NCBI GenBank assembly: GCA_002774355.1
Contig: PEYN01000018.1
Location: 91 to 64,090 of the forward strand
Direction: 5' to 3'
DNA length: 64,000 nt
Origin: Fidelibacterota bacterium CG08_land_8_20_14_0_20_45_22
GTDB taxonomy: Bacteria; Fidelibacterota; UBA2242
The notes under the pieces are model-generated. The model was not told the DNA's origin. It saw nothing but the letters and a program-made list of their open reading frames with translations, and did no database searches. A program made the position numbers and the translations under genes. Positions 3,470-61,405 of the stretch are shown here, one piece after another. Each line of letters begins with the position of its first letter. Within the stretch, counting starts at the first letter, position 1.

Positions 3470-4666
3470 ATGAAGAAAAAGATATTAATCGGTATTGGTA
3501 TTGTTTTGGTGGCATTATTGGGTTGGCGTTTAGTCAATTTGTTTTCCGGAGCCAACAAGCAGAAATTGGTCCGAATGGCGCGACTGCCGGTAGCCGTTGA
3601 GGTGGATAGCGTTCGATTTGCGCCCATCGTGGAAGTTCGGGAATTGACAGGAACAGTTTTTCCCGATTATCAATACGTTGTTTCACCCAAAGTTGCCGGT
3701 CGGTTAATTGAGATTCGAAAACGGATCGGCGACAAAGTCAAAGCAGGAGAAATCATTGCCCGAATCGACAATGCCGAATATCAGCAGGGCGTTTTGGAAG
3801 CGGAAGCTAATTTGCGCATTGCCGAATCTTCATTAAGCGAATCCCGCTCGAATTTTAATTTGGCAAAACAGGAAAAAGACCGCGTGGAGTCTCTTCAGAT
3901 AAAAGGCATTGCATCGTCCAGCGAATTAGATGCCGCGGTGTCGAATTATTCCGCGCAGAAATCGCGTTTCGATTTGGCACGGGCTCAGGTGGAACAACGT
4001 CAAGCGGCATTAAAATCTGCCAAGATTCGTTTGAGTTACACAACGCTGATCGCTTCTCAGCCCGGTCTTATTGGTGAACGTTATATTGATGAGGGCGCAC
4101 TCCTGTCGGCGAATTCTGCCGTTGTGTCGGTTGTTGGCATTGACCGCGTAATCGTTCGGACGACGGTGATCGAACGAGATTACGGAAAAATTAATTCCGG
4201 TCAATCGGCAAAAGTATCGGTAGATGCATTTCCAAATAAGGCGTTTTGGGGTAAAGTAACCCGCATTGCGCCTATGTTGCAAGAAGCCTCCCGCGTTGCC
4301 CAGATGGAAGTAGAAGTGGCTAACCAGACGCATGAACTAAAGCCTGGAATGTTTGCCCGCGTTGAGGTCATCACGGCGGAAAAAGCGAATACGCAAGTCG
4401 TGCCGAGTAAAGCATTAGTGACTTCCAACGGAGGAGTCGGTATTTTCGTGGTTCCAGAATCAACAACCGTTGCTCGATATTATTCCGTGACGACCGGAAT
4501 CGTGACGTCGGAATACACGGAGATTGTTGCGCCGATTCTTACTGGGCGCGTCATTACATTGGGTCAGCATTTGCTTGAAGATGGCAGTTTGGTGATTCTT
4601 CCCCAAATGAAACCAATTGAAATATCAGCGCCTGATTCTTTGCAAATTGGGGAAAAATCGAAATGA
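3470..4666 (+). CDS. RND efflux periplasmic adaptor subunit (membrane fusion protein, HlyD family)
   Basis: N-terminal TM anchor, coiled-coil rich middle, beta-barrel C-terminus; 4-bp overlap with the downstream RND pump gene. Confidence 0.85.
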   Translation: MKKKILIGIGIVLVALLGWRLVNLFSGANKQKLVRMARLPVAVEVDSVRFAPIVEVRELTGTVFPDYQYVVSPKVAGRLIEIRKRIGDKVKAGEIIARIDNAEYQQGVLEAEANLRIAESSLSESRSNFNLAKQEKDRVESLQIKGIASSSELDAAVSNYSAQKSRFDLARAQVEQRQAALKSAKIRLSYTTLIASQPGLIGERYIDEGALLSANSAVVSVVGIDRVIVRTTVIERDYGKINSGQSAKVSVDAFPNKAFWGKVTRIAPMLQEASRVAQMEVEVANQTHELKPGMFARVEVITAEKANTQVVPSKALVTSNGGVGIFVVPESTTVARYYSVTTGIVTSEYTEIVAPILTGRVITLGQHLLEDGSLVILPQMKPIEISAPDSLQIGEKSK

Positions 4667-7600
4667 ATATCGCCGCCGGACCAATTAAACGACCTATTTT
4701 AACCACAATCATTTATCTTATTGTCATTACGCTCGGATTGGTGTCATTTAGCCGGTTATCCATCGATCTGATGCCGGAAATCAGTTATCCGACGATTACG
4801 GTCATCACGAGTTATGGAAATGTAGGACCGCAGGAAATGGAAGAATCCATCTCTCGCCCGATCGAGGAGGCGCTGGCGGCGGTGCAGGGCGTCGATGAAA
4901 TTACCTCGACCTCCACCGAAGGACGAAGCGTCGTGCGGGTTTCATTCAACTGGGGGACAGATTTGGATGTCGCGGCGAACGATGTCCGCGACCGTATCGA
5001 CCGAGTAATGAGTCGGCTTCCCGAAGATATTGATCGTCCGATGATCCGAAAGTTTGATGTGTCGGCTTTTCCGATCATGAATATTGGCGTTTCTGGTAGC
5101 CTAAGTCCGCTAGAGTTGCGGCGAATCGTCGAAGATCAAGTCAAATATCGGCTGGAAAAAGCACCGGGCGTTGCATCGGTCGATATTCGCGGTGGACTCT
5201 ACCGGGAAATCCATGTTGACTTACATTCTGCAAAAATGAAGGCTCTGAACATTTCACCGGAATCTGTTCTGAACGCGCTGAAAAGTGAAAATCGGAACGT
5301 TCCCGCTGGTTTGTATGAGAAGGGAAATCTCGACGTGCTTGTCCGAACACAGGGTGAATATTCTAGTCTTGACGAAATCCGAAATACGGTGATTACCGCA
5401 CGAAACGGTGTGCCGATTCAAATTCGCGATGTCGCCGATGTGATCGATTCATGGGAAGAAGTTTTACAAATGGTACGTATTGATGGCAAACCGGGGCTTC
5501 GTATTGCTGTCAACAAGCAGTCTGGCGCAAATACGGTAAAAGTCGCCGATGCGGTGAAACTGGAAATGGTACGCATTAACCGCGATATTCCACAGATTCG
5601 ACTTATTCCGATAATGGACACCTCACAACGTACATTAAAAATTCGATCAGCAGTGTCGGCAATTCGGCGCTCATCGGCGGCATTTTAGCGGTTCTGATTC
5701 TTTTTCTGTTCTTGCGAAATGTCTCCAGTACGCTGATTATATCAACGGCGATTCCGATTTCAATTATTGCTACCTTCGGACTGATGTACTTCGGTGGATT
5801 CACGTTGAATACGATTACTTTCGGCGGGCTGGCGCTTGGGATTGGTATGCTCGTTGACTCTGCGATTGTCGTTCTCGAAAATATTTATCGCCACCGGGAG
5901 TCTGGCGCTTCATACCAACAGAGTGCGATGGATGGGGCGGTGGAAGTATGGTCGGCAATTCTTGCCAGTACGCTGACGACGATCGTTGTATTTCTTCCTG
6001 TCGTTTTTATTCGCGGCGTTTCCGGAATTATGTTTCAGCAAATGGCGTATGTTATCACTTTTTCTCTGCTGTGTTCGCTCATTGTTTCCGTGACGCTAAT
6101 TCCAATGCTATCGTCGCGCTTTCTCAAATTTCAGAGATCGGAACATTATCAGGACGAAAATGCTCTGCATCGGCTCTATTCATGGAGTGAAGACGCTTTC
6201 CGGCGAGTGGAGCAAAATTACTCAAGGATACTTCGGTGGGCTCTCGGTCATAAACGAACAGTTCTGATCGTGACGTTGGGACTTTTCATTTTGGCGGTGA
6301 TTCTGGTGCGGTTTATCGGCGTCGAGTTAATGCCGACTGCTGATGAAGGACAAGTTCAGGTCAGCCTGGAAATGGCCGTAGGAACCCGGTTGGAACTTAT
6401 CGATCAAGCGACTAAAGCTGTCGAAGATGTTATTTCAAAGCAAGTACTAGAAGCCATATCCGTTTTATCAAATATTGGCGGTGGCGGCTATGGTTCTTCC
6501 GGAGGACACATGTCTGATATCCGGATTCAACTGGTTTCTCGTGATAAGCGGAAACGGAGTAGCGAACAAATAGCAAACGACCTGCGAAAATCGCTTATTG
6601 GACTACCGGGTGTCACGATTCGGACGAGAGCCGGCCAGGGACTCTTTATATTGAGAATGGGAACTTCTTCGGGAAATGTGGTCGATGTCGAAATCCGTGG
6701 ATACGATCTGGAAACGGCACAGAAACTTGCACAAGGCGCCGATGAAGTTATTCGAAAAGTTCCAGGCGTCACCGATACCAAAATCAGCCGCGAGGAAGGA
6801 AGTCCGGAGCAGGTCATTCAGATCGATCGTGAGAAAGCGGCAGATTTAGGACTTGGTGTAACGCGAATTGGCGATGCGCTTCAAACGGCAGTCGGCGGGA
6901 CGCAGGCATCTTATTATCGCGAAGGCGGAAAGCAGTACAAAATTCTTGTGCGCCTCAGCGAAGAGGACCGAAAAGATTTGGATGAATTGCTGGATTTGTC
7001 TGTTTTGAACAGTCGGGGTTATCCCGTTGCCTTGCGAAATGTTGCTACGGTGATTCATCAGGAAGGGCCGGTTTCTATTGAACGCAAGAACCAAGAACGA
7101 ATCATCACCATCGGAACAAATTTCACCGGCAGAGATATGGGATCGGTCATTGGCGACATCCGTGAACAACTGCGCACTTTACCAATACCAAAAGACTTTC
7201 TGATCCAGTTTGGCGGCGATTACGAGGAACAGCAAAAAGCTTTCAAGGAATTGTTGGTTGGCATGGTGCTTGCCATTTTTCTGGTGTATATGGTTATGGC
7301 GGGGCAATTCGAGTCGTTTGTCGATCCGTTGGTCGTTCTCTTTTCGATTCCAATGGCAATCATTGGCGTTACACTGACGATGATTCTCACCAATACAATT
7401 TTTTCCATGCAGGCATTTATTGGTAGTATCATGCTCGCCGGAATCGTTGTCAACAATGCGATTCTTCTTGTCGATTATACGAATCAATTGCGCCGACAGG
7501 ACGGGATGGATTTGACCGATGCTGTTCAGACGGCCGGAAGTCGTCGCCTGCGACCGATTTTGATGACAACGTTGACAACGGTTTTAGGTTTATTACCGCT

Positions 7601-7757
7601 ATCGTTTGGTTTAGGTGAAGGCGGCGAAACACAGGCTCCGCTCGCTCGCGTCGTGATTGGCGGTTTACTTAGCTCGACGCTCATCACATTGGTACTGGTT
7701 CCGGTTATCTATTCTGTTTTCGAGCAACGGCTGAGAATCCGAAAGGAGCGCGGTTAG
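4663..7757 (+). pseudogene. RND efflux permease (AcrB/CzcA family) split by a single-nucleotide frameshift near 5629-5630 (fragments 4663..5688 and 5712..7757)
   Basis: ORF 4663..5688 encodes the AcrB N-terminal domain up to ...IPIMDTSQ. The frame of 5712..7757 read backwards gives YIKNSISSVGNSALIGGILAVLILFLFLRNVSSTLII, the conserved AcrB continuation. The two frames meet at 5626-5631 with two extra bases (cg). Confidence 0.8.
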
Positions 7758-9251
7758 ATGCGCTATAAAAATAAAAGAACGTTGCAACGAAAAATTCTCC
7801 TCTGTCTAATAATGGGAGGAATATCTGCGCTGGCGTCTGAACCGGAACTGGCAGATACACTGCGAATCGGTTTACAAGACGCGATTTTACTTGGGTTGAA
7901 AAACAATCCGACAGTGGCGGTTAAGCGACTGGAACCGAAAATCATGGAAACATACGTAAAAGAGCAAAAAGGTTTTTTTGATCCTGCGCTCGAAATTTCT
8001 GGAACACAAAGTCAAAATAAATCACAACGTCTGTTGGGAACGCGCCCGACACCCGTAGAACTTCAGGATAACCGCTCTAATTATTCTTTACAAATTTCGG
8101 AGATATTACCAACAGGAACAGCAGTAACAGCTTCAACCGGAATGACGGGTGCTTTGTCGAATTTGTACACCGACCAATTTTCCGGTACTATTGGCTTAAC
8201 CGTGACGCAACCGCTATTAAAAGGTTTTGGGTTTGGCGTCAATCTTGCCTCGCTTTGAAAAGCAAAAATTGATCTGAATATCTCGCAATCCGAATTAAAG
8301 GGCTTTGCGGAATCTATCGTCGCGGATATTGAAACGAGTTACTGGGAGTTGTATTTGACCGGCCAAGAGATCGCGATTCAGCGGAATTCGCTTGAACTGG
8401 CGGAACGTCAATTATCGGAATCGCTGGAACGCATCAAGGTTGGAAAACTCCCGGAAATTGAATTAGCCGCTGTCGAAGCGGAACTCGCCGCTCGGAAAAG
8501 CGCATTGATTGATGTTCAGAGCCGTCACGAGCAAGCGCGTTTGCGGATTATGTATCTACTGAATCCGGGGAAAGAGATGTCATGGTCACAACAATTTCAA
8601 CCAATTGATCAGCCTTTTTTGCCGAACGATACGTTGGCGTCAGTGACGATTCACGAACAGATTGGACTGAAATATCGACCGGATTTGGAGCAGGCTCGGC
8701 TTAATCTTCAGAAAGGTGATCTGGAAGTCAGGCGGACGCGAAACGGTTTGTTGCCTCAACTGGATTTTTTCGTCACGTTGGGAAAAACGACCTACGCCAA
8801 ATCATTCGATAAAGCCTATCCTGACGTGAATTCTCCATACTATCAGGCGAGCGCCGGACTGACGCTGGAAATTCCTGTGGCAAACCGGACGGCATCGGCG
8901 CAACACACCCGCGCGCGTCTCTCCCGCGAACAGCAATCGCTTGCCTTTCAAAATATGGAAAAATTAGCGCAGGTTGAGATTCGTTCCGCATACGCCGAGG
9001 TTATCCGCACCCGACAACAGATCGAAGCAACTCGAATGACCCGTGAACTGCAGGAAAAGAAACTTGCCGCAGAGTTGGAAAAATTCCGCGTGGGTAAATC
9101 GACCAACATTCTTGTCCTGCAGGCACAAAATGATTTCACTTCCAGCCAACTTAGCGAGGCGCGGACAATGGTTGCCTATCTGACCGCACTTGTCAATCTC
9201 TATGTTTCCGAAGGCGCCTTGCTGGAACGTCGAGGAATTGAGACTTTTTAG
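7758..9251 (+). pseudogene. TolC-like outer membrane efflux factor interrupted by an in-frame TGA at 8256-8258 (fragments 7758..8258 and 8349..9251 are in the same frame)
   Basis: Both ORFs are in frame 0. Translation across the stop gives ...GFGFGVNLASL*KAKIDLNISQSELKGFAESIVADIETSYWELYLTG..., a continuous outer-membrane-factor sequence; no other stop lies between the fragments. Confidence 0.7.
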
Positions 9252-20771: not shown

Positions 20772-22010
20772 GGACCTCAGATTTTGGTAAATTTGGGTTG
20801 TTTAAAAAAGGGAGTTGAACGTCAAATGTACCAGTTGAGTCTTGGAGATTATCAAGCCAGTCAAAATCGGATTGTTACGAAAGCGGAAATGAAATTAACA
20901 GAGATAGATAAGATCGTAAAATGGGATCGTCTTGTTGAATTAATTTCAGTAATTGATAAGACTGATAAACACATCGGAGGCCGGCCGCGAAAAGAGACTT
21001 TGATGATGGCGAAAATTCTGTTTGTGCAATATTTGTATAATCTGTCTGATCCAGAGTTAGAAGACCAGTTAAATGACCGACTCTCGTTTCAGCGATTTGC
21101 AGGAATAGGACTTGATATGAAGGTTCCGGACTACAGCACGATATGGAGATTTAAAGAGGCTTTGACAGAGCACAAACTGTTAAGCAGAATATTTGACTTA
21201 ATATTAGACGATTTGAAGTTGAGGGGGTTGATATTAAAGAAAGGGACCATAGTGGATGCGACGATCATACAGTCCTACAATCGCCCATTGAGTGAGAAAA
21301 AAAGAGAGGAACTACAAAAGAATCCAACCCAAACTTCAGGGATCGACATGGATGCCAGATCGACGAAAAAGAACGGGAAATATCATTATGGATATAAGGG
21401 ACATATTGGAACGGATGTGAAAAGCAAGTTGATCCGGCGGGCGTCTTTGACATCAGCCAATGTTCACGACAGTCAGGAAATGGGAGATTTAATCAGCGGT
21501 GACGAGCAATCTGTATTTGGAGATAAGGCATATTTCAGTGACAAGGGTAAACGTGACTTTCGAAGAAAAGGGATTTATTATGGAATCCTGAACAAAGGAA
21601 AACGAGGACATAAATTGTCGGAGAAACAGATCAGACAGAATAAACGACACTCGTCGATCCGGTCGCAGGTTGAGCATCCATTCGCATATATGAAACGCAT
21701 CCTGAATTACGAATGTGCGAGGGCTCGGAATCTGGCGAGGAATGAGTTGAGGTTCATGATGAATTGCATCGTCTATAATCTATTACGAGGCAGTTATTTG
21801 ATTAAAATGGCGGCTTAGTTGGACAGGTACGTCCCGAAGGTGAAATCCTTCAGAAAGCAGGTAAAAATGATAGAAATTGACAAGGGAAAATGCTAAAAAC
21901 TGTATCGACTGGACAGTATCTGGGATCATTCGGGCTAGAAATGACCACCGAAATTTTAAAATTGTGAAAATATTGACCATGAAGTAAAAGGGACGGTTTT
22001 TCAAAGTACT
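20746..22010 (+). mobile_element. IS5-family insertion sequence (~1265 bp) with imperfect terminal inverted repeats and 6-bp target duplication CTTATA
   Basis: CTTATA at 20740-20745 and 22011-22016. Left end GAATTCTTTGCAAAACC pairs with the reverse complement of the right end AGTACTTTGAAAAACC. Excising the element plus one duplicate restores the frame of the interrupted CTD. Confidence 0.75.
20826..21818 (+). CDS. IS5-family DDE transposase
   Basis: Begins MYQLSLGDYQ like IS5 Tnp (MSHQLTFADSE). N-terminal DUF772-type region (RPRKETLMMAKILFVQYLYNLSDPELEDQLNDRLSFQRFAGI), DDE domain with GTIVDATII and GYKGHIGTD. The ORF call 20784 is probably 42 nt too long. Confidence 0.85.
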   Translation: MYQLSLGDYQASQNRIVTKAEMKLTEIDKIVKWDRLVELISVIDKTDKHIGGRPRKETLMMAKILFVQYLYNLSDPELEDQLNDRLSFQRFAGIGLDMKVPDYSTIWRFKEALTEHKLLSRIFDLILDDLKLRGLILKKGTIVDATIIQSYNRPLSEKKREELQKNPTQTSGIDMDARSTKKNGKYHYGYKGHIGTDVKSKLIRRASLTSANVHDSQEMGDLISGDEQSVFGDKAYFSDKGKRDFRRKGIYYGILNKGKRGHKLSEKQIRQNKRHSSIRSQVEHPFAYMKRILNYECARARNLARNELRFMMNCIVYNLLRGSYLIKMAA

Positions 22011-22119: not shown

Positions 22120-23568
22120 TTGCACTTAATCCGCATGTTTTATGTGGGGGAAAGCCGAAAACTTTTCCCCACTTTTTTTACGGTTCTATTAATCAGCGCG
22201 CCAGTTTTCGCCGGCCAATGGTACGAGTCGATTTACAGCCTGATGGGCTTTCCGCAAATTAATCAGAGTGTGTCTTCCGAGTCATACTATCATGAAAAAT
22301 ACATTTCCTTTTCGACTGGTTACGATGACGTATATCGCAAAAAAATCTATGGCAAAACAACCCTGACGCTGGCTGAGCAAAGTAATAGGGTGCAATTCGG
22401 ATTGCCCTGGCAAATAGGAAAGACCCGTCATCTTTTCACGGGTGAATTAGCCGAAGATTTCTTGTATTTCAATAATCTTAATGACGAGACCAGCCTTATC
22501 AGCCGGTGCCGGATCGCGAATACCAGAATAGACGCCCGCTGGATTATTTCACGAGGATCCAGTATCTTCAGCCTGGGTACCGAGTACAGTCAGAGCAACA
22601 TGCCCTTCACGATAAACATAAAATCCTTTCCCGAGTCCGAAGACTCCCAAACCAATAAGTATTTCTTTGACTTGCTCGAACCGACTTTCGGAAGGGAATT
22701 GGGCAGTACTCTGAGTCTGAAAAATACCGGTTTTTCCTTTTGGGCTTCGACCAGGTTGAATAGGCGCTGGCGTATCGGCGTTTCGATGCATTATGCGGGT
22801 TTCGATTCTGACTGGCGGATTAACTATATCAATTCAGGTCAAAATGGGAAACGGCGGATAGATATTCCTATGAACGGATTCGATAAGGTTTATCGCTTTT
22901 CTTTACTCCCAAATCAATCTTTGCTAAAAGATATATCAATTACATTTTTCAGGGATAATATCGATTATTTTATCGATAATAACCGTCCTAATATTACTGA
23001 TCTGAAAACTCTCGGCCAGGGAGATATTGGTCGCTCCGGTTCTGCTATCAATATTAATATCGAAAAACAGAAATGGAAAATATCCGGCGGTCTGTCGATT
23101 GCTAATTACGATCTCGATTCATTTTTGCGTACACCAGTCCTTGGATATTATTTATTTTTTCCGATTTCCCATTCGGCTGAATTTAATTTTTCACACGGAC
23201 GGTCCTTCAGCCAGCAGATTGGTTTCGATAACAACTTCGACTTCCGGAATATCAATATCCGAGCTGGTTCAGTTTATACCCACGCTCTTTACGATTTCTG
23301 GATTAAAGGAACAGCCGACCTGATGCTTGGCCTTGAATCTACCCCACTCGATTACCCGTTCAAATACAGTCTACATTTGCTGGATTTACACGCGGAAATG
23401 GAATGGCGTAAAGGTCCGTTTGGATTGACCTATAATTTCCAACAATTAATCCCAATCGGCCGGCGCCTGGACGACAGTCCGATCCGGTTTACCAAGAAAA
23501 CTCCGGGAGTGGAATATACAAATCATGGCGGACAACAGCATCAGATCAATCTCGGATATTATTTTTAA
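22120..23568 (+). CDS. Hypothetical outer-membrane beta-barrel protein
   Basis: Signal-peptide-like N-terminus (TVLLISAPVFAGQ), alternating hydrophobic patterns, C-terminal ...INLGYYF ending in an aromatic residue as in OMP barrels; no recognisable enzymatic motif. Confidence 0.4.
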   Translation: MHLIRMFYVGESRKLFPTFFTVLLISAPVFAGQWYESIYSLMGFPQINQSVSSESYYHEKYISFSTGYDDVYRKKIYGKTTLTLAEQSNRVQFGLPWQIGKTRHLFTGELAEDFLYFNNLNDETSLISRCRIANTRIDARWIISRGSSIFSLGTEYSQSNMPFTINIKSFPESEDSQTNKYFFDLLEPTFGRELGSTLSLKNTGFSFWASTRLNRRWRIGVSMHYAGFDSDWRINYINSGQNGKRRIDIPMNGFDKVYRFSLLPNQSLLKDISITFFRDNIDYFIDNNRPNITDLKTLGQGDIGRSGSAININIEKQKWKISGGLSIANYDLDSFLRTPVLGYYLFFPISHSAEFNFSHGRSFSQQIGFDNNFDFRNINIRAGSVYTHALYDFWIKGTADLMLGLESTPLDYPFKYSLHLLDLHAEMEWRKGPFGLTYNFQQLIPIGRRLDDSPIRFTKKTPGVEYTNHGGQQHQINLGYYF

Positions 23569-23577
23569 CCGCCTGAT

Positions 23578-23670
23578 TTTTTATGCACAATTGCCTACCG
23601 TCATTATCATCCGTCCTATTGCGACTTTTCAACCGGTTTCTGGCTCTGCCGTAGCGCGGAATGATTTGGC
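23578..23670 (+). repeat. Copy B of the dispersed ~90-bp repeat (first copy at 18254..18345)
   Basis: See copy A; lies 30-120 nt upstream of the RluA-family gene start. Confidence 0.6.
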
Positions 23671-23701
23671 ATTTCCGCCGAATTGCCGGAAATTAGCCAT
23701 T

Positions 23702-24382
23702 ATGAAAAATCAACCGAATCCATCGTTAAAAATCATCTATGAGGACAATCATTTGCTGGTTGTCGACAAACCGGCGGGAACTCTGATGCAGGGCGATCAA
23801 ACCGGTGATATTACACTTTTGGAGATTGCCAGAAGTTACATCAAAGAGAAATATCAAAAACCCGGCGATGTTTTCCTCGGGCTCGTCCATCGCATCGACA
23901 GACCGGCGTCCGGAGTGGTCGTTTTTGCCAGAACTTCCAAAGCCGCCGCGCGCCTGACTGTGCAATTTCAGACGAAGCAAGTGACGAAAATTTACCGCGT
24001 TCTCGTCGAAGGAAAAATTCCCGACTCCGGAACATGGAAGGACGACATTCTGCGTGACAACGTGACGAGCAGAATTGTGAAAAGCGGCAAGGGGCAACCT
24101 GCGGAGTTGCATTTTCGGCGACTGAATTACGAAAACGGCTACTCACTCGCCGAGGTTGAAATTGTCACCGGGCGACATCATCAGATTCGCGTTCAGTTCG
24201 CGCATCGCGGATTTCCGGTATTCGGCGATCTTCGTTACGGTTCAAAAACCAAATTCAATGACGGTACCGCCATCGCGCTTCATTCCTATTTGTTGTCGTT
24301 CAATCATCCGACGAAAAACGAGCGAATGACGTTTGTCAGCGAGCCGGACGCCTCGTGGGGACTTTACATCAATTTGAGATGA
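23702..24382 (+). CDS. RluA-family pseudouridine synthase
   Basis: DKPAG...HRIDRPASG catalytic motif (HRLD-type with Asp). About 226 aa from the internal Met MKNQPN; the longer ORF call 23525 would overlap the upstream gene and the repeat. Confidence 0.85.
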   Translation: MKNQPNPSLKIIYEDNHLLVVDKPAGTLMQGDQTGDITLLEIARSYIKEKYQKPGDVFLGLVHRIDRPASGVVVFARTSKAAARLTVQFQTKQVTKIYRVLVEGKIPDSGTWKDDILRDNVTSRIVKSGKGQPAELHFRRLNYENGYSLAEVEIVTGRHHQIRVQFAHRGFPVFGDLRYGSKTKFNDGTAIALHSYLLSFNHPTKNERMTFVSEPDASWGLYINLR

Positions 24383-25359
24383 GCGACATGTCGTTCCCGA
24401 AAAACAGCGTCCAGATTGCCGGGATTAAAAGCCTTTCTGAAGCAAAAATGCTGATGGATTGCGACGTCGATTTTCTCGGATTTCCGCTGAAATTAGCCGT
24501 TCATCGGGAAGATATTCCGTCCGAAAAAGTCGCCGAAATTATTCAAAATCTGAAAATCGCCGATCAGTCTATTTTGATTACGTACTTAGATCGCGCCGAA
24601 GGGATTCTCGATCTGGCAGATTTTCTCGGCTTGTCGATTGTCCAGATTCACGGAATGATTACGATACCGGAACTCGTCAAGATAAAACAACAGCGTCCGC
24701 GACTTCGCCTCATTAAAAGCCTGATCGTCAAAACGGGTTTGACCGAATTATCCATCGATGTCGAACGTTTCTCGTCGCTGGTCGATGCGTTTATTCTTGA
24801 TTCGTACGATCCGAAAACCGGCGCCAGCGGCGCGACCGGCAGAACTCATGATTGGAACATCAGCCGGAAGTTGGTTGAATTTTCGCCCGAACCGGTGATT
24901 CTCGCCGGCGGACTGAATTCCGGAAACGTCCGGAAAGCCATTCTGGATGTTAGACCGGCGGCGGTCGATGCGCACACAGGCGTCGAAGATTCAAACGGCG
25001 ATAAAGTGCGGCAACTGGTGGAAAAATTCGTTTCGGAGGCGCGAGATGCTTTTCGACTGGTAAATTTGAAAGAGGAAAACGCCAATTCCATCGAAATTCC
25101 GATCGACGGAACGCTAGACCTACATACTTTCCAGCCGCGCGAAGTGAAAGAATTGTTGGCTGATTATCTTTCCGAATGTCGTCGGCGCGGCATTTTTCAG
25201 GTTCGGATCATTCACGGCAAAGGAACCGGCGCTCTTAGGGAAACTGTTCATCATTTTTTAGAGAAAATGCCATCGGAAGTCGATTCTTACCGACTTTCGG
25301 ATGAAACAGGCGGCGGTTGGGGTGCAACGGTCGTCACTTTAAAGGAAATAGATTTGTAA
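24379..25359 (+). CDS. Fusion protein: phosphoribosylanthranilate isomerase (TrpF) domain plus C-terminal Smr domain
   Basis: The N-terminal ~210 aa are PRAI-like (VQIAGIKSL...DFLGF...ILAGGLNSGNV). The C-terminal ~85 aa are LDLHTFQPREVKELLADYLSECRRRGIFQVRIIHGKGTGALRETVHHFLE, the LDLHG...HGKG Smr signature. ATGA overlap with the rluA-family stop. Confidence 0.75.
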   Translation: MSDMSFPKNSVQIAGIKSLSEAKMLMDCDVDFLGFPLKLAVHREDIPSEKVAEIIQNLKIADQSILITYLDRAEGILDLADFLGLSIVQIHGMITIPELVKIKQQRPRLRLIKSLIVKTGLTELSIDVERFSSLVDAFILDSYDPKTGASGATGRTHDWNISRKLVEFSPEPVILAGGLNSGNVRKAILDVRPAAVDAHTGVEDSNGDKVRQLVEKFVSEARDAFRLVNLKEENANSIEIPIDGTLDLHTFQPREVKELLADYLSECRRRGIFQVRIIHGKGTGALRETVHHFLEKMPSEVDSYRLSDETGGGWGATVVTLKEIDL

Positions 25360-25373: not shown

Positions 25374-25397
25374 CGGACAAATCGGCTGTCCGTTTTT
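25374..25397 (+). terminator. Rho-independent terminator after the TrpF-Smr gene, upstream of glmS
   Basis: CGGACA-aatcggc-TGTCCG followed by TTTTT. Confidence 0.55.
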
Positions 25398-43865: not shown

Positions 43866-44693
43866 TCAAACCAATATTTTTGCGGTTCTTAACAGAAATT
43901 CTTCCGTCAGAGCCCGGCACAGATAGCGCCGGTATTCCGCGGTCGAGCGTTGATCGGTAATCGGTCTGACCCTGCGCTCGATGCAATCGAGGATTTCAGC
44001 GGATTTTCCTTCACGATATAATTGCTCGGCTTCGTAAGCCCGGATAATCGTCGGTCCGACCGAGGCGTATGTCAGGCGGATTTCGTTGTTATCCGGCAGG
44101 TACAGACCGAGGAAAGCGACCTTCGAGAGTGAGAGCGCCTTGCGCGGCCCGATCTTGCGATATGAATATTTATAGTTCCACGGAATGTTCAGCCGGATTT
44201 CTGTGAGCAGTTCGTCCGAGCGGAGAATTGTCTTCTTCGGCCCGGTGATGAAGTCGCGAACCGGAATCTTCCGGATACCTTGCGCTGATTCGAGCGTGAG
44301 TTCGGCATCCAGCGCGTAAAAGATCGGAAGTGTGTCGCCCGCCGGAGAAGCATTAACGATATTCCCGCCGAAAGTCGCCATGTTGCGGATTGACGGCGAA
44401 GCAATCTGAGTCACTGCATCGGTCAGCGGCGGAAAAATACTTTTCGCCTGCTCGAGATAGGCGGCGTAGGTCAGACCGGCTCCGATTGTCAACTTTCCTT
44501 CGCTGAAATTTATTTGACTAAGTTCCGAAAGATGATTGATCTGAATGAATACCTGCACTCGTTTGACATTTGTGCGGGCTTGCACAAGTAAATCAGTGCC
44601 CCCGGCGATTGGTTGTGCCACGGTTTGGCTCATCAGATCGAGCACTTCCGATTTTTTAGATGGACGGTAATATTTGAGTTTTTCGTACCACAT
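43866..44693 (-). CDS. Xanthine dehydrogenase-family FAD-binding subunit (CoxM/YgfM-like)
   Basis: FAD_binding_5-type N-terminus (YYRPSKKSEVLDLM...PIAGGTDL) plus CO dehydrogenase flavoprotein C-terminal domain; 275 aa. Confidence 0.85.
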   Translation of the reverse strand: MWYEKLKYYRPSKKSEVLDLMSQTVAQPIAGGTDLLVQARTNVKRVQVFIQINHLSELSQINFSEGKLTIGAGLTYAAYLEQAKSIFPPLTDAVTQIASPSIRNMATFGGNIVNASPAGDTLPIFYALDAELTLESAQGIRKIPVRDFITGPKKTILRSDELLTEIRLNIPWNYKYSYRKIGPRKALSLSKVAFLGLYLPDNNEIRLTYASVGPTIIRAYEAEQLYREGKSAEILDCIERRVRPITDQRSTAEYRRYLCRALTEEFLLRTAKILV

Positions 44694-45117
44694 GTTTATT
44701 TAAAAGTGACGGGTGATGAGTGACGGGTAATTTATGCATATCAATTACGTAAAAATATTCTATTTCTTTTTTCAATGAATTTATTAGTCCTATCAGCATC
44801 TGTCGGATTGTGGCTACTTTTTCATCCAAAGCAGATATATTTTTGATTAACTTTAGATTATTTGCAATAATTAATAACGTTTCTAATTCGCCTAACGATC
44901 CTAACGAAATAAATAAAAACTGAATGCATTCTTTTTTAGAACTTCGTCCAGCGCCTTCGGCAATGTTGGCTGGAATGGATATTACGGGTCTGCGGATTTG
45001 TGAAGTAATCCCGCAGGTTTCTTCTTTGGAAAAATCCCGTGTTAAAGAATAAACCTCCGAACCGAGTTCCATACTTTTCTTCCAAACCTTCAGGTCTTTA
45101 TGGGATTTTATTGCCAT
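44656..45117 (-). CDS. Four-helix-bundle protein (23S rRNA intervening-sequence protein family, TIGR02436-like)
   Basis: MAIKSHKDLKVWKKSMELGSEVYSLTRDFSKEE...QIRR...SIPANIAEG is the hallmark of this family; 38-nt overlap with the downstream coxM-like start. Confidence 0.8.
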   Translation of the reverse strand: MAIKSHKDLKVWKKSMELGSEVYSLTRDFSKEETCGITSQIRRPVISIPANIAEGAGRSSKKECIQFLFISLGSLGELETLLIIANNLKLIKNISALDEKVATIRQMLIGLINSLKKEIEYFYVIDMHKLPVTHHPSLLNKHVVRKTQILPSI

Positions 45118-45143
45118 GTACTCACCCTGTCACTTGTCACTTT
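44703..45143 (-). mobile_element. Inverted-repeat-bounded small element carrying a four-helix-bundle (23S rRNA IVS-type) protein gene, inserted between the FAD and 2Fe-2S subunit genes
   Basis: AAAGTGACGGGTGATGAGTGACGGGTAA at 44703-44730 pairs with the reverse complement of 45121-45143 (AAAGTGACAAGTGACAGGGTGAG). IR-R supplies the last 9 codons of the 2Fe-2S gene. IR-L plus the coxM start supply a 29-aa tail on the 4HB ORF. Confidence 0.5.
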
Positions 45144-45563
45144 CTCCACCGCTTCAACGATCTTCTTATATCCGGTACACCGGCAGAGATTTCCCGAGAG
45201 TGCTTCTTTAATTTCAGCGACAGTCGGATGCGGATTGTGTTTCAGCAGGGCGTAAGCCGATACGACGAATCCCGGTGTGCAGAACCCGCATTGCACCGCG
45301 CCGGTTTCTTCGAAGGATTTGAAAAGTTCATTAGCATTGATGCCTTCGATTGTGGTCACTTCCCGACCGTCACATTGGCCGAGCAGAACCAGACAGGAAT
45401 TCACCGGTTTGCCATCGAGCAGAACCATACACGCGCCGCATTCGCCTTCTCCGCAACCTTCCTTCGTGCCGGTCAGCTTTAATTCACTGCGCAAATAATC
45501 GAGCAGACGCGTTGAGGGAGAGGCTTTTGAGACCCGAGCTATACCATTTACAATAATATTCAC
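45108..45563 (-). CDS. (2Fe-2S)-binding subunit of a xanthine dehydrogenase-family molybdenum hydroxylase (CoxS-like)
   Basis: Plant-type ferredoxin motif GCGEGECGACMV and second cluster motif CGFCTPGFV...CRCTGY. Start uncertain (GTG at 45563/45566 lies inside the element repeat; the ORF call to 45641 would overlap the GxxExxY gene). Confidence 0.85.
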   Translation of the reverse strand: MNIIVNGIARVSKASPSTRLLDYLRSELKLTGTKEGCGEGECGACMVLLDGKPVNSCLVLLGQCDGREVTTIEGINANELFKSFEETGAVQCGFCTPGFVVSAYALLKHNPHPTVAEIKEALSGNLCRCTGYKKIVEAVEKVTSDRVSTWQ

Positions 45564-46047
45564 CACAGAGGACACGGAGGGCACAGAGGTATTTTTATTT
45601 ATTTTCTTTACTTTAGTCATTAATAATTCGGTGAACCCCATCGATTAATTTTACTACGTTGAAATTTATCAATAATCCTAAGATTCGATTAGAAAGTTTA
45701 AGATAAGACAATAATTGGGCTGTATGAATTGGGAGAAGATTTTCGATGGCTTTTAATTCAACCGCAATTTCACCCTCAACTAATAAATCTATCCGATAAC
45801 CACAGTCTAATTTTACATCTTTATAGACCACCGGCAGATCTTTCTGAGATTCCACTTTCAAACCTAATTGCTTTAATTCATACACAAGACATGCTTCATC
45901 GGTGGATTCCAGCAAACCCGGACCCAGTGCACGATAAACATCAGTAGCCTTACCTATTATTTTCTCCGTAATCTTATTTAATTCCTCTCGTGATTTCATC
46001 TATCTATCTAATATTTTCTCTGTGCTCTCTGTGTACTCTATGGTAAA
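45561..46047 (-). mobile_element. Inverted-repeat-bounded small element carrying a GxxExxY-family gene, inserted between the Mo-binding and 2Fe-2S subunit genes
   Basis: CACCACAGAGGACACGGAGGGCACAGAGGTA at 45561-45591 pairs with the reverse complement of 46016-46047 (TTTACCATAGAGTACACAGAGAGCACAGAGAA), about 24/30 matches. IR-R encodes the last 10 aa (VHREHRENIR) of the Mo subunit gene. Confidence 0.5.
45613..45999 (-). CDS. GxxExxY-family protein (PD-(D/E)xK nuclease-like, TIGR04256/PDDEXK_3-like)
   Basis: GKATDVYRALGPGLLESTDEACLVYEL...RIDLLVEGEIAVELKA contains the GxxExxY signature and a D...E.K core; 128 aa. Confidence 0.85.
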   Translation of the reverse strand: MKSREELNKITEKIIGKATDVYRALGPGLLESTDEACLVYELKQLGLKVESQKDLPVVYKDVKLDCGYRIDLLVEGEIAVELKAIENLLPIHTAQLLSYLKLSNRILGLLINFNVVKLIDGVHRIIND

Positions 46048-48232
46048 TCATTTCCGGGGTCAAGGGAATCTCATGGAATTCGACGCCCAGCGCATTCTCG
46101 ACCGCGCCGAGATATGCCGCCGGAATGCCGACTAACGGTTGTTCGCCGACGCCCTTCGCGCCGTACGGCCCGCGCGAGTAATTTTCTTCCAGAATAATGG
46201 ATTCGATTTCCGGCGCATCTAATGTTGTCGGAATGATGTAATCCGTCAGGCTTGCTTGATTCAATCTGCCGTTTGTTGCCGTCATAACTTCCAGCGAGGC
46301 GTAACCGAGTCCCTGCAAAGAGCCGCCTTCGATCTGGCCTTCAACCAGAACCGGATTGATTGCCTTGCCGATGTCGTGCGCCGCCGTGATTTTTCCAACC
46401 GTCACTTCAAAAGTCAGCGGGTCAACAGTAACTTCCACTACTGACGCCGCCCAGGAGTAAATTGGGTAAGCGTCGCCGACAAATTTATCATCATCCCAGA
46501 CGACGTCGTCCGGCACGCGATAAACACGCGTCGCGGTGAAAATACCATTCGTTGCCAGTTTCGCTTTTTCGGCAAAATCCTTTTTGGCGGGCGTCGCTCC
46601 GACCTGCTCCATCAGATCGGTACAACATTGAAAAACCAATCCGCCGACGATCATGGTCGTGCGCGAAGCGACCGTCGGCCCGGAATTTGGCACAATGGCT
46701 GTATTCGGAATTGCCACCGTGATTCTTTCGATGGGAAGAGCCAGCGCGTCGGCGGTAATCTGACGCATGACGGTATTCATGCCTTGTCCCATTTCAACAG
46801 TGGCGATACGGATCAATAATCCGGTTTCATTTGAATAATCGACAGAGGCGGTTGCCTTGATAATTTCTTCGCCTTTGCCCGTAAAACCGCATCCGTGGAA
46901 AAACGCAGAGATACCGATGCCTTTTAAAAGTTGACCATTTCGCGGCTGATTGCGGTATTGATTATATTTTTCAACGAAATTCGTACGCTCGGCGACAACA
47001 TTCAATGCTTTTTCCAAGCCAATGGATTCTGCTAATAATTGGCCGGTCGCCGTACGGTCACCGAGGCGCAAAATATTAATTTTCCGCAGAGAATAAGGGT
47101 CGAGATCCAGGCGATAAGCGGCGTGATTCATCTGAGCTTCGATGGCGAAGAACGCCTGCGGAGCGCCGAATCCGCGAAACGCGCCCGACGGCAACAGATT
47201 TGTCGCTACGGCTTTCGACGCTAAACGGATATGATCGCATTTGTAAACTCCCGGCGAGCCCAGCGCGCCGCGCGCCAAAACTACCTGTGAGAGCGTACTG
47301 TGCGCCCCGCCATTCAATATGAAATCGATGTCCATGGCGATAATGCGACTGTTCTTATCGAAAGCGATCCGGCGAATACTTTGCGACGGATGGCGTTTGG
47401 TTGTCACGGAAATGTCCTCGCTTCGATCATAGACGATTTTGACCGGTTTGCCAGATTTCAGCGCCAGAAGCGCCGCGTGACCGGAAATCAGCGATGGATA
47501 TTCCTCCTTGCCGCCGAATGCTCCACCGGTGGTCGCCTGTTCAACGACTATATCTTCCGGGTCGAGATTTAGCACTGGTGCCAGACCTTTTTGCACGTAA
47601 AACGGGCATTGCATTGAACCGACGATCCTGATGCCATTCTTGAAAGGATAAGCAATCACGCCCTGCGTTTCTAAATAGATATGCTCCTGATAGCCGGTGC
47701 GGAAGGTTTCCTCCAGCACGAATTTGCTTTTTGCGAAAGCTTTATCCGGGTCGCCCTTGACGTAGCCGTAACTCTTGAAAATGTTGTCACTGCCGTAAAT
47801 CGGCGGAAAATTCCCGGACAGCGCGTTTTCCATCGTTGAAATCGCCGGCAAATCTTCGTATTCAATTTGAAATTGTGAAGCGATCGCGCGCAGTTCATCC
47901 TCATTTTTTCCGGCTAACAGCGCAATCGGTTCGCCGATGTAATTGACGACATCTTTCGCCAAAAAGGGTTGATCTTCGTTGAACAGGGCGACGTAATTTT
48001 CACCGGGAATGTCTTCAGCCTTGATATAAATGACGTCGGGCGGCAATTCCGGAGCGACAATCCGCAGAATCTTCGCCCGCTGACGGTTCGAGCGGATCGT
48101 TACACCAAAGAGCATATCCGGAAAATCCAGATCATTGGTATATTTTGCTGCGCCACGCATTTTATCGGCGGCATCAAACCGCACAATCGGCTGGCCGACA
48201 TATTTTAGATCCATTTTCTGTTGATCGGACAT
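46004..48232 (-). CDS. Molybdopterin-binding large subunit of a xanthine dehydrogenase / aldehyde oxidase-family hydroxylase (CoxL/XdhD-like)
   Basis: 742 aa with Ald_Xan_dh_C hammerhead and the two Mo-cofactor binding domains; follows XdhC and precedes the 2Fe-2S and FAD subunit genes. Confidence 0.9.
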   Translation of the reverse strand: MSDQQKMDLKYVGQPIVRFDAADKMRGAAKYTNDLDFPDMLFGVTIRSNRQRAKILRIVAPELPPDVIYIKAEDIPGENYVALFNEDQPFLAKDVVNYIGEPIALLAGKNEDELRAIASQFQIEYEDLPAISTMENALSGNFPPIYGSDNIFKSYGYVKGDPDKAFAKSKFVLEETFRTGYQEHIYLETQGVIAYPFKNGIRIVGSMQCPFYVQKGLAPVLNLDPEDIVVEQATTGGAFGGKEEYPSLISGHAALLALKSGKPVKIVYDRSEDISVTTKRHPSQSIRRIAFDKNSRIIAMDIDFILNGGAHSTLSQVVLARGALGSPGVYKCDHIRLASKAVATNLLPSGAFRGFGAPQAFFAIEAQMNHAAYRLDLDPYSLRKINILRLGDRTATGQLLAESIGLEKALNVVAERTNFVEKYNQYRNQPRNGQLLKGIGISAFFHGCGFTGKGEEIIKATASVDYSNETGLLIRIATVEMGQGMNTVMRQITADALALPIERITVAIPNTAIVPNSGPTVASRTTMIVGGLVFQCCTDLMEQVGATPAKKDFAEKAKLATNGIFTATRVYRVPDDVVWDDDKFVGDAYPIYSWAASVVEVTVDPLTFEVTVGKITAAHDIGKAINPVLVEGQIEGGSLQGLGYASLEVMTATNGRLNQASLTDYIIPTTLDAPEIESIILEENYSRGPYGAKGVGEQPLVGIPAAYLGAVENALGVEFHEIPLTPEMIYHRVHREHRENIR

Positions 48233-48402
48233 CGGTTACAAAGATAATCGTTTCTGGTGAATAATGGTAGAGAGAATTTTTAATTGAAAATTGGTGGCTG
48301 GAGATTGCTAATTTCAAAATTCAAATTGCAAATATTTCATTTCAAATTGGAAGAAAATACAAGTTTAGTTTTCTCCGCGACCGCTGCAGTCTCCGCGGTT
48401 AT

Positions 48403-49179
48403 CTAGGATTTCTTCCTCAATGAATCGGTTTCGGTTTTATTGATTACGCCTATCATTTCGCCCAGGATGGCTACCGCGATTTCAGCCGGTGTCTGCGCTC
48501 CGATATTCAGGCCAATCGGCGAGTAAAATTGCTCCGGAATGGCAATCTTTTCCTCAGTCAATCGCGCGCGGGTTTCTTTAACTTTATGCAGTGAACCGAT
48601 CAGGCCGATATATTCGAATGACTTTCCGCAAGTCAGCAATTGGCGCAGAACAGTGTAATCGAACTGATGATTGTAGGTCATAATCGCCGCAAAGAGATTC
48701 GACCCGGGAAAAGTTACCATCGGCAATTTTTCCAAATCGCACTGAATGAAGTCGATGGGCGCGAATTGCGGTTTGAGTTCCGATCGATTATCGTAAACCG
48801 TCACCCGAAAACCAATCTGCGGCGCCATTTTATAAAGCGCCTGCCCGCAATGGCCGCCGCCAAAAATTAACAGCGTGCGCACCGCCGGAAAATAGTCGTA
48901 AAAGAGCGTTGAACTGCCGCCGCAGGGCATACCAAGAGAATCGAGATCGTATCGTTTCAATTCCGACTTATGCGATTGGAAAATCAAGCCGGCATGGCGG
49001 ATCGCCTCTGCCTCCAGACTACCGCCGCCGACCGTGCCGAATGTTTTACCGTTTGGTAGAACCAGCATCTTGAAAGAAACCTTGCCCGGCGCCGCGCCGG
49101 AATTTTCGATGACGGTAATCAAAACGCAAGCCTGTCCAGAAGCAGTTATTTCCGTGATTTTATTAAACAGGGTGTTCAC
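48403..49179 (-). CDS. XdhC/CoxI-family molybdenum hydroxylase maturation factor
   Basis: XdhC_CoxI N-domain (ACVLITVIENSGAAPGKVSFKMLV...GTVGGGSLE) followed by the Rossmann-like XdhC_C domain (LLIFGGGHCGQAL). Confidence 0.85.
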   Translation of the reverse strand: MNTLFNKITEITASGQACVLITVIENSGAAPGKVSFKMLVLPNGKTFGTVGGGSLEAEAIRHAGLIFQSHKSELKRYDLDSLGMPCGGSSTLFYDYFPAVRTLLIFGGGHCGQALYKMAPQIGFRVTVYDNRSELKPQFAPIDFIQCDLEKLPMVTFPGSNLFAAIMTYNHQFDYTVLRQLLTCGKSFEYIGLIGSLHKVKETRARLTEEKIAIPEQFYSPIGLNIGAQTPAEIAVAILGEMIGVINKTETDSLRKKS

Positions 49180-49790
49180 TTTGTTCTCGCTTTCATTTTG
49201 GCAATTCGTTCTGCGGTGGATTGAAGTATTCCATAATCATTGGGCGTGTCCAGATCCAGCAGAATTTCTTCGTCATAAACCGTTACAAACCGCCTTTTGA
49301 ATTGATTAATGATCGTTTTAGGAGTTATGGAAGAATCGTTTTCGTCTGCCGCCAGAATTGCCGTCCGGACTTTTTCGCTGGCGAGGATCGGATGTCCGGC
49401 ACTACGATGGAACGATGGCTGGACAATGTCGGCTTTTTCTGCGGCGATTAATTTTTGGTAAACTTTAGCCGGAATCTGTGGCTGGTCGCCGAGTGCAATG
49501 AAAAAACGTAGCGTTTGAATCTGCGCGGCGCCGACTTTCACCGAAGAAAACATGCCTTTGGCGTACTGTTTATTTTCGACGAAAACCACGCGTTCGTCCC
49601 AGCGTTTCAGATTGACAATATCCTGCGCCCGAAAGCCCACCACGACGATAACCCGCTCCGACACTTCCAGCGCGGTGTCAATGACTGTTTCGACTATCGT
49701 GGATTGCCCGAAAGGCAACAACGGTTTGAAGGCGCCCATGCGGGTGGAAAGCCCGGCGGCGAGGACGACTGTATCAAACTTATTAACCAC
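49176..49790 (-). CDS. MobA/MocA-like nucleotidyltransferase (molybdenum cofactor cytidylyl/guanylyltransferase; YgfJ-like)
   Basis: VVLAAGLSTRMGAFKPLLPF N-terminal NTP-transferase motif; 204 aa; 4-bp overlap with the xdhC-like gene. Confidence 0.8.
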   Translation of the reverse strand: MVNKFDTVVLAAGLSTRMGAFKPLLPFGQSTIVETVIDTALEVSERVIVVVGFRAQDIVNLKRWDERVVFVENKQYAKGMFSSVKVGAAQIQTLRFFIALGDQPQIPAKVYQKLIAAEKADIVQPSFHRSAGHPILASEKVRTAILAADENDSSITPKTIINQFKRRFVTVYDEEILLDLDTPNDYGILQSTAERIAKMKARTK

Positions 49791-49809
49791 GAATGGACAC
49801 GAATTTACA

Positions 49810-60936: not shown

Positions 60937-60946
60937 ATCAAACCTT

Positions 60947-61372
60947 TCATGTTAACCGCGGAGGACGCTGAGAACGCAGAGTTTCTCCTTGATAATTGTT
61001 GACAATTCTTTTTATTCCATTTTTAAGTATGCTTGAATTGAAGTTAATCAACAACCCTACTTGTAGTTTTGAGATTTTTAAGTAATTCAGTAGTTGCGCC
61101 TGATCGATATTGGTCAGTTCGTTGACGGCTTTACACTCAACCACCAATTGGTCGTCGATAAAAAAGTCGCAACGAAAACCTTTTTCTATCACTATGTCAG
61201 CATATTTAACGGACAGATATTTTTCCTTTTCAAATTTCATTCCGGCTTCCTGCATTTCACAAGCCAGGGCGGCCTGATAAACCGATTCCAAAAACCCGGG
61301 GCCAAGATTGCGGTGAACCTTAATCGCTAAACCGATTACTGTTTCCGTCAGTTGGTTTATATCTTCAAACAT
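60947..61372 (-). CDS. GxxExxY-family protein (second copy)
   Basis: GLAIKVHRNLGPGFLESVYQAALACEM...RCDFFIDDQLVVECKA contains the GxxExxY signature; paralog of 45613..45999. Confidence 0.85.
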   Translation of the reverse strand: MFEDINQLTETVIGLAIKVHRNLGPGFLESVYQAALACEMQEAGMKFEKEKYLSVKYADIVIEKGFRCDFFIDDQLVVECKAVNELTNIDQAQLLNYLKISKLQVGLLINFNSSILKNGIKRIVNNYQGETLRSQRPPRLT

Positions 61373-61405
61373 AAAATTGCTCCGTGCCCTCTGCGTCCTC
61401 GGCGG
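60958..61405 (-). mobile_element. Second GxxExxY-carrying inverted-repeat element, inserted between the M20 peptidase and carbamoyltransferase genes
   Basis: GCGGAGGACGCTGAGAACGCAGAG (60958-60981) pairs with the reverse complement of CTCCGTGCCCTCTGCGTCCTCGGCGG (61380-61405). IR-L encodes the C-terminal tail QGETLRSQRPPRLT of the GxxExxY ORF. Confidence 0.45.

Follow-up and report, generated by a model that had tools for sequence, protein, structure and literature searches.

What does a phosphoribosylanthranilate isomerase barrel do on the same polypeptide as an Smr nuclease domain? The question is raised by an open reading frame (ORF) at 24379-25359 (+) in a 64,000-nucleotide stretch of contig PEYN01000018.1 (assembly GCA_002774355.1, positions 91 to 64,090 of the forward strand) from Fidelibacterota bacterium CG08_land_8_20_14_0_20_45_22; this whole stretch is referred to below as the window. 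A preliminary description of the window had proposed that the ORF fuses phosphoribosylanthranilate isomerase (PRAI, TrpF) to a C-terminal Smr domain, that no trp genes lie nearby, and that the gene is translationally coupled (ATGA) to an RluA-family pseudouridine synthase gene. The single-ORF fusion, the Smr assignment, the absence of trp neighbours and the coupling were all confirmed. The N-terminal domain was found to have the TrpF fold and to belong to a distinct, widespread and uncharacterised clade, termed 'Q-x-A-G', in which the catalytic Cys of TrpF and the adjacent Lys are replaced.

One gene for two domains

The locus holds one gene encoding one polypeptide with two domains. A frame check of the window showed that the ORF runs from ATG 24379 to TAA 25357-25359 with no internal stop, giving a product of 326 amino acids (aa). 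An alternative start, ATG 24388, lies 9 nucleotides (nt) further on, is the one chosen by public gene callers (P0001), and gives 323 aa; full-length calls of the gene by JGI, ENA and Logan are 323-326 aa long. ATG 24379 shares an ATGA with the TGA (24380-24382) that ends the RluA-family ORF upstream, and both candidate starts lie no more than 6 nt from that stop. Pfam scanning placed PF00697 (PRAI) at aa 12-219, with E 1.4e-19 and a score of 71.1 bits where the gathering threshold is 22.7, and PF01713 (Smr) at aa 246-322, with E 4e-23 and 81.8 bits where the threshold is 25.7. The Smr match covers profile positions 1-77 of 77. The motifs LDLHTF and RIIHGKGTGALRETV, on which the Smr assignment had been based, were located at aa 246-251 and aa 276-290, with DxH and GxG intact.

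An AlphaFold2 model of the protein, produced with an alignment of 29 homologues (mean predicted local distance difference test score 90.6, predicted template modelling (pTM) score 0.74), showed a barrel of eight strands, a long helix at its C-terminal end (aa 211-235), and, after a short linker, the Smr domain with an alpha/beta fold. The linker (aa 226-240) varied in length, and was free of stop codons in all 29 fused homologues (alignment A1). The NCBI record for the locus, PIS30754.1 (identical to P0390), comprises only the last 97 codons (aa 230-326), starting from TTG 25066, and is named 'DNA mismatch repair protein MutS'; 229 in-frame codons upstream of that TTG are left out of it.

The distribution of the fused form was examined with a pattern scan of GTDB (one genome per species), which gave at least 600 matches, 577 of those being confirmed as relatives of the query by barrel or Smr domain, and with a library of 1.84 billion proteins. 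Gene neighbourhoods were examined in a set of 87 loci with flanks of about ±10 kb, amounting to about 1.2 Mb. The fused form was present in 11 of the best 80 GTDB loci, and the other 69 were all stand-alone barrels; five of the fused loci carry the label Neomarinimicrobiota, five have no label, and one (L014) has the label 'Aminicenantes'. The fused form made up at least 64 clusters at 90% identity and, in the library of 1.84 billion proteins, about two full-length clusters plus fragments at 50% identity; it was kept down to about 44% identity. The same two-domain protein is found in these clusters from independent assemblies, as well as in 11 GTDB species representatives, which rules out an assembly artefact. 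Wherever a genome with the fusion has a phylum label, that label is Marinimicrobia, one Aminicenantes-labelled group excepted.

Whether the architecture is common and annotated, a question that came with the preliminary description, has a divided answer: it recurs in Marinimicrobia under automatic names ('Smr/MutS family protein', 'phosphoribosylanthranilate isomerase'), but full-length clusters are few, and no paper in the literature library searched was found to join 'Smr domain' and 'phosphoribosylanthranilate isomerase' or to describe the fusion. The paper on SmrB (bioRxiv 10.1101/2021.08.16.456513) and the NONU-1 preprint do not mention a PRAI-Smr architecture. Literature matches to 'trpF-1' and 'trpF-2' were names of single-guide RNAs, and matches to TrpF paralogues or TrpF-like proteins were irrelevant; all of these were set aside. 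The sequence is already public under its automatic names, and what is new is the recognition of a fusion of two orphan families and of a non-canonical 'TrpF' clade.

The barrel clade and the mini-Smr family

For the barrel, the best Foldseek matches in the PDB were the solved TrpFs 5lhf, 4aaj, 1nsj, 1lbm, 1v5x and 1dl3 (target-normalised TM-score 0.83-0.90), and every one of the top 10 matches was a solved TrpF (0.80-0.90, likewise target-normalised). None of the NCBIfam TrpF equivalog models reached its cut-off (best NF002298, 101.8 bits against 215, i.e. half or less), and thirteen further TrpF-containing NCBIfam models were likewise under their cut-offs. HMMER alignment to the TrpF of Thermotoga maritima (1lbm/1nsj; also 1dl3) set its VKIC7GIT opposite VQIA14GIK of the fusion protein. 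Cys7 of the T. maritima enzyme is said to have been identified by Henn-Sax and colleagues in 2002 as the catalytic general base.

The replacement was followed through a column table of 61 fused proteins, 109 clade members that stand alone, and 23 canonical relatives with K-x-C-G. The column of Lys5 holds Gln in 100% of the fused and 96% of the stand-alone barrels and Lys in 100% of the canonical ones, that of Cys7 holds Ala in 100% and 99% and Cys in 100%, and that of Asp126, the general acid, holds Asp in 100%, 99% and 100%, respectively. A start of the form [IV]-[QH]-[IVA]-A-G was present in all but one of the best 120 homologues. Residues P36, Y69, S114, A152 and H199/T200 are specific to the clade, which retains the GxTG loop, LAGGL and the beta-8 loop alongside Asp141. 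In a neighbour-joining tree of the barrels, produced without support values from a short alignment, the K-x-C-G TrpFs were almost cleanly apart from the Q-x-A-G clade, and the fused proteins fell in 8 groups. As the fused and stand-alone barrels have identical invariant residues, the fused barrel is under the functional constraint of its own clade.

Stand-alone barrels of about 225 aa were found in Ignavibacteriota, Syntrophales, Desulfobacterota, Planctomycetota, Binatia, Calditrichota, Krumholzibacteriia, Lentisphaerae and one archaeal metagenome-assembled genome (MAG), and among cultured organisms in Syntrophus buswellii DM-2, Desulfoferrobacter suflitae and a Desulfobaculum species.

Pfam or NCBIfam scans of nearly all large ORFs found no trp gene in the 64-kb window, the carA/carB ORFs and the block at 27.2-33.7 kb having been identified only through precomputed Pfam hits on homologous loci. 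The only PALP enzyme of the window (49810-51033) was considered as a possible TrpB, and was rejected as ThrC-like. When the TrpFs of T. maritima and Pyrococcus furiosus were searched against the window by tblastn, the fusion ORF was the sole match; against the 87 loci, the two solved TrpFs gave exactly one match per locus, always the clade gene, and hence there is no canonical trpF in any of the 87 flanks. Regular-expression motifs for TrpA, TrpB, TrpC and TrpD had no match in the same flanks, which is weak evidence as the patterns lacked positive-control validation.

Compared with TrpF (EC 5.3.1.24; T. maritima 1nsj/1lbm, P. furiosus 4aaj), the barrel is alike in fold, in D141, in the beta-7 and beta-8 loops, and in its PF00697 match, and differs in the changes of Cys7 to Ala and Lys5 to Gln, in its sub-cut-off NCBIfam scores, in the absence of trp genes around the loci examined, and, here, in its fusion to a nuclease. 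The preliminary assignment as a phosphoribosylanthranilate (PRA) isomerase stands for the fold and the Pfam family and fails at the catalytic pair and the NCBIfam cut-offs; of the catalytic Cys and Asp whose retention had been left to be checked, the Asp is present (D141), and the Cys is not (A14). Judged by sequence, the label 'TrpF' is too specific for the barrel, and we infer that the protein is probably not a tryptophan-pathway PRA isomerase.

The C-terminal domain is, from its sequence, a complete mini-Smr with predicted nuclease motifs (DxH and GxG) intact. It is 65-76% identical to stand-alone Smr proteins of 90-105 aa, here called mini-Smr, from Nitrospirota, Latescibacteria, Thermodesulfobacteriota and others (3049 matches), and an alignment of these had 57% mean column identity across phyla, with PIxGxLDLHxFxP, HGKGxG and WGAT invariant. 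The stand-alone proteins ('Smr/MutS family protein', 'DNA-nicking Smr family endonuclease') share the whole Smr region and its invariant motifs (PIDGxLDLHxFxP, HGKGxG, GGWGAT) with the fusion, but are without the N-terminal domain, and no RluA or barrel gene adjoins them in the 83 mini-Smr loci analysed. Sequence matches of the Smr part in the PDB were the MutS2 Smr domains 2zqe, 4och and 8qpp, and the mini-Smr profile was nearer to the MutS2 type (2zqe, E 2e-12; 4och, E 9e-12) than to SmrB or SmrA (E in the 1e-5 range). MutS2 of Bacillus subtilis and Thermus thermophilus accordingly has the closest solved Smr domains by sequence; it differs in its MutS core and clamp, ABC ATPase and KOW domain, none of which the fusion has (only PRAI and Smr were detected), and the TIGR01069 match of the fusion protein was confined to the last 81 positions of that model. 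B. subtilis MutS2 has DLR, not DLH, at the catalytic motif.

Bacterial Smr proteins have been divided into three clades, the SmrB type, which has a hook at its N-terminus, MutS2, and the KOW-Smr of Bacteroidetes; cleavage of mRNA by SmrB needs DxH, and the GxG loop of Smr domains is predicted to contact RNA (bioRxiv 10.1101/2021.08.16.456513). The fusion resembles Escherichia coli SmrB, an mRNA endonuclease of ribosome collisions, in having an Smr domain with both DxH and GxG, which makes its Smr domain a plausible RNA endonuclease. It is unlike SmrB at the N-terminus, where SmrB has a hook helix with a '--xxxa' motif binding uS2, and the fusion has a 225-aa barrel.

A divergent fused protein, P0287 (303 aa), keeps LDLH and HGKG intact, and its barrel is without the GATG, LAGGL and HTGxE loops (IQISG, ILADGL and GVNFYINSQ being found instead). 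Retention of the Smr motifs with loss of the barrel residues is consistent with the Smr domain as the indispensable effector. Separately, a 106-aa protein, P0121, was seen to start with MSLLKHTVQIAGIK, corresponding to the first strand of the barrel, and to continue as a complete mini-Smr; it looks like either a barrel-deleted fusion gene or an assembly artefact.

Neighbouring genes, other partners and candidate functions

An RluA orthologue lies directly upstream of the fusion in the window and in 10 of the 11 GTDB fused loci, at a gap of -11 to +18 nt where an ATG start is evident, so that the coupling proposed for the window is kept across species. Clustering of the ORFs in the flanks of the 87 loci showed that RluA is the only family specifically tied to the fusion, and the two genes are usually in an operon-like arrangement. 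RluA was beside the stand-alone barrel in none of 70 loci and beside the mini-Smr in none of the 83 loci. In the window, the longest RluA ORF runs from 23525, and the likely true start is ATG 23702, giving 226 aa and matching the orthologues; TIGR00005 (rluA_subfam) scored 177.7 bits on this protein, slightly under its cut-off of 192.7.

The two parent families were not found together elsewhere: a mini-Smr was beside the stand-alone barrel in none of 70 barrel loci, and a barrel gene was near the mini-Smr in none of 83 mini-Smr loci (446 kb). Among the conserved neighbours of either parent, only generic families recurred (ABC ATPases, response regulators, tail proteins of the type IX secretion system, TatA, GuaA). 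An ORF that we take, from its resemblance, to be YjbQ/UPF0047-like lies just downstream of the stand-alone barrel in L024, L037, L039, L043 and L052; it occurs there in Syntrophales only, as lineage-specific synteny. In Syntrophus buswellii DM-2, a 241-aa Smr protein of another type (IDLHG ... IIHGRG) is encoded downstream of uvrA (L044, 10751-11476, -). Its gene is convergent with the stand-alone barrel gene, at a distance of 40 nt, and was considered as a link between barrel and mini-Smr; being of a different Smr type, it was rejected as probably coincidental.

The barrel was also found joined to other partners, none of which acts in tryptophan synthesis. In P0243, a PfkB-family sugar/nucleoside kinase is N-terminal to a clade barrel that, as in few such members, keeps the Cys (IQVCG), which hints that the substrate of the clade may be a kinase-made phospho-sugar or nucleotide. 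In P0252, the barrel is joined to an S-adenosylmethionine-dependent methyltransferase. In P0260, it is joined to a ModA-like binding protein through a signal-peptide-like linker, for which reason this may be a read-through gene call, and P0280 is an apparent fusion of the barrel with a ModF-like ABC ATPase. Genes modA-modB-modC directly follow a stand-alone barrel gene in a Bacteroidaceae MAG (L063, 10001-13210), and in two further loci (L061, 6756-10660; L087, 6839-10672) the barrel is preceded, at a distance of 1.6 kb, by a ModF-like double ABC ATPase; together with P0260 and P0280, these were considered as a link to molybdate transport, and were judged too sparse to build on. In four clusters (P0241, P0245, P0258, P0263), proteins of about 610 aa carry, after the barrel, about 390 aa with an anti-sigma-antagonist (STAS)-like stretch and a GHKL-ATPase-like N-box, SRIVYEAMTNAIRHP; this C-terminal part had no match in Pfam, NCBIfam or PADLOC. 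PADLOC, which covers anti-phage defence, also gave no match for the fusion protein, RluA, a mini-Smr, or the full barrel fusions of about 610 aa.

The reading of the fusion that we tentatively favour is that of a protein outside the tryptophan pathway, in which an RNA-directed Smr endonuclease would be combined with a barrel for a phospho-ligand. The Smr domain would be the effector, probably ribosome- or translation-associated, because of the analogy with SmrB, Cue2 and NONU-1 and of the RluA partner. The barrel would stand in for the accessory modules of other Smr proteins (the hook of SmrB; the ATPase and KOW domain of MutS2). Its ligand may be of the 5-phosphoribosyl type, either bound or converted chemically, and the nuclease could in this way gain a metabolic input or a second catalytic step. 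Several observations weigh against this. The parent families are unlinked across the 70 and 83 loci, and give no independent support for a functional link; RluA is missing upstream in the P0004 lineage (L001-L003; the closest relative of the window, at 59% identity), in which the downstream beta-lactamase/peptidase-M15 synteny with the window is still present, and in L014; and where RluA is present, its adjacency could be lineage-specific synteny. In addition, a pTM of 0.74 is no proof of a fixed inter-domain contact, a different general base could in principle restore PRA isomerase chemistry, and DNA nicking was the first described Smr activity, the RNA target being argued from other Smr proteins. 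A more specific version is decidedly unlikely, namely that the barrel acts on a 5-phosphoribosyl compound as an enzyme or a sensor of a new kind, and is physically coupled in Marinimicrobia to an Smr ribonuclease and a pseudouridine synthase as a metabolite-gated or two-step module of RNA surveillance or turnover; candidate ligands would be a ribosylamine/pterin precursor or a modified nucleotide such as pseudouridine 5'-phosphate.

The main alternative, somewhat unlikely, is that two unrelated neighbouring housekeeping genes were fused neutrally, and that their products have independent functions and no mechanistic coupling. Such a neutral fusion would fit two parents that are common single-gene families in variable and uninformative neighbourhoods, that are not adjacent elsewhere, and whose fusion is essentially a matter of one lineage, each domain retaining the invariant residues of its own family; but the unit persists through at least 64 clusters and to 44% identity with a short linker and with no stop or split, the degenerate barrel of P0287 is still attached to an intact Smr domain, and conservation of the operon with RluA points to selection acting on the whole. 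That the barrel is the PRA isomerase of the organism, working through another general base in a bifunctional TrpF-Smr protein, is unlikely, since the Cys and adjacent Lys are lost clade-wide with NCBIfam scores at half the cut-off or less, no trp gene was found in the window or the 87 loci (tblastn for trpF, unvalidated motifs for the others), and the other fusion partners of the clade are non-tryptophan, although the fold, the general-acid Asp, the phosphate-binding loops, a PF00697 score above gathering, and the database name 'phosphoribosylanthranilate isomerase' all speak for it. TrpF-fold enzymes are also catalytically adaptable, and in Chlamydia TrpF has been recruited to folate (pterin) synthesis with a different N-ribosyl-5'-phosphate substrate (PMC4161248). 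The Chlamydia case is a precedent for a TrpF-fold enzyme outside the trp pathway; it differs in that a canonical TrpF is used promiscuously there. No link of the Q-x-A-G clade to folate genes was seen here.

The remaining two alternatives concern the Smr part. A domain nicking DNA, as was first proposed for the Smr domain of MutS2, would make the fusion a repair or recombination factor; this is highly improbable given an operon partner that modifies RNA, a DxH motif as in the mRNA-cleaving SmrB where B. subtilis MutS2 has DLR, and the placing of MutS2 itself in ribosome rescue (PMC10897456), and it has in its favour the nearness of the mini-Smr sequence to the MutS2 type, and the other-type Smr downstream of uvrA, beside the barrel gene, in Syntrophus buswellii. 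It is barely credible that the locus makes two products, with the Smr domain translated alone from TTG 25066 and the barrel separate or untranslated. Such an arrangement would match the NCBI annotation of a 97-aa protein alone, and stand-alone mini-Smr proteins start at the equivalent position, but there is no inter-domain stop in the window or in the 29 aligned homologues, the JGI, ENA and Logan calls are full-length, and the barrel is under strong purifying constraint.

The favoured combination of a putative RNA-directed nuclease with a phospho-ligand barrel would add an enzyme-type TIM barrel, as a new accessory module, to the few bacterial Smr architectures, which are KOW-Smr, MutS2 and the hook of SmrB. 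No other contextual clue has so far tied either orphan family to a process (RNA or translation, through RluA), and the fusion draws attention to an unstudied and extremely conserved mini-Smr family. As the Q-x-A-G clade is routinely annotated as TrpF, automated metabolic reconstructions may name the wrong gene for a tryptophan step in Ignavibacteriota, Syntrophales, Desulfobacterota, Planctomycetota, Marinimicrobia and others; if the barrel were indeed a new enzyme or sensor, thousands of genes of anaerobic bacteria that are now called 'phosphoribosylanthranilate isomerase' would be wrongly annotated and belong to a family not yet recognised. The fusion is curious and testable, and does not open a long-standing question.

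Coordinates and other features of the window

Table 1. Positions of the fusion gene, its domains and motifs, and its nearest features (numbering of the window).
Feature	Position	Strand	Basis
RluA-family pseudouridine synthase gene	23525..24382	+	PF00849, E 4.7e-33; TGA stop 24380-24382
Fusion gene	24379..25359	+	Continuous ORF, two Pfam domains, AlphaFold2 model
TrpF-fold (beta-alpha)8 barrel, 'Q-x-A-G' clade, aa 12-219	24412..25035	+	PF00697, Foldseek
Beta-1 motif Q12-I-A14-G15 (site of TrpF K5-I-C7-G8)	24412..24423	+	HMMER alignment, column table
D141 (TrpF general-acid Asp126), kept	24799..24801	+	Invariant in A1
G151-A-T-G154 loop (canonical: GGTG/GGSG)	24829..24840	+	Invariant in A1; G134 to A clade-specific
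L175-A-G-G-L179, beta-7 phosphate-binding loop, kept	24901..24915	+	Invariant; common to canonical TrpF
V196-D-A-H-T-G-V-E203, beta-8 phosphate-binding loop	24964..24987	+	H199/T200 clade-specific; canonical N/S-S
Variable linker, aa 226-240, including TTG 25066-25068 (L230)	25054..25098	+	Alignment A1
Smr domain, aa 246-322	25114..25344	+	PF01713; equivalent to whole stand-alone mini-Smr
D247-L-H249, predicted DxH catalytic motif	25117..25125	+	Invariant in 29 fused and 26 mini-Smr sequences
G280-K-G282, GxG loop, predicted RNA contact	25216..25224	+	Invariant in 29 fused and 26 mini-Smr sequences
Terminator-like hairpin CGGACA-AATCGGC-TGTCCG + TTTTT	25374..25397	+	Pattern scan, consensus match only

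The terminator-like hairpin (25374-25392, plus T5) lies 15 nt past the stop of the fusion gene and ahead of glmS, which is the gene downstream, from 25424. On the other side, a 482-aa ORF with no Pfam match (22120-23568) is upstream of, and overlaps, the long RluA ORF, and has a conserved counterpart in L088, another assembly from this organism; a terminator-like hairpin at its 5' end (22144-22172) indicates that its true start is probably further downstream. An IS5-type transposase (DDE_Tnp_1 + DUF772, 20784-21818) lies shortly upstream of the operon, and L088 begins near it, which would fit an assembly break caused by the repeat, the position not being exactly mapped.

No Rfam families or tRNAs were found in the window. 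Near its start, an AcrB-type transporter is divided over two ORFs (4663-5688 and 5712-7757, covering Pfam profile positions 6-334 and 353-1020), and the adjacent outer-membrane efflux protein is likewise in two (7758-8258 and 8349-9251); the splits in this efflux operon (4663-9251) reflect frameshifts, sequencing errors or the presence of pseudogenes. A selenium-linked molybdenum hydroxylase neighbourhood occupies 43866-51033 and 59914-62672, with subunits binding flavin adenine dinucleotide, 2Fe-2S and the molybdenum cofactor, XdhC, a MobA-like transferase, the ThrC-like PALP enzyme, a carbamoyltransferase, and a YgeY-family hydrolase (560 bits). Between the hydroxylase subunits is an ORF for a '23S rRNA-intervening sequence protein' (44656-45117).

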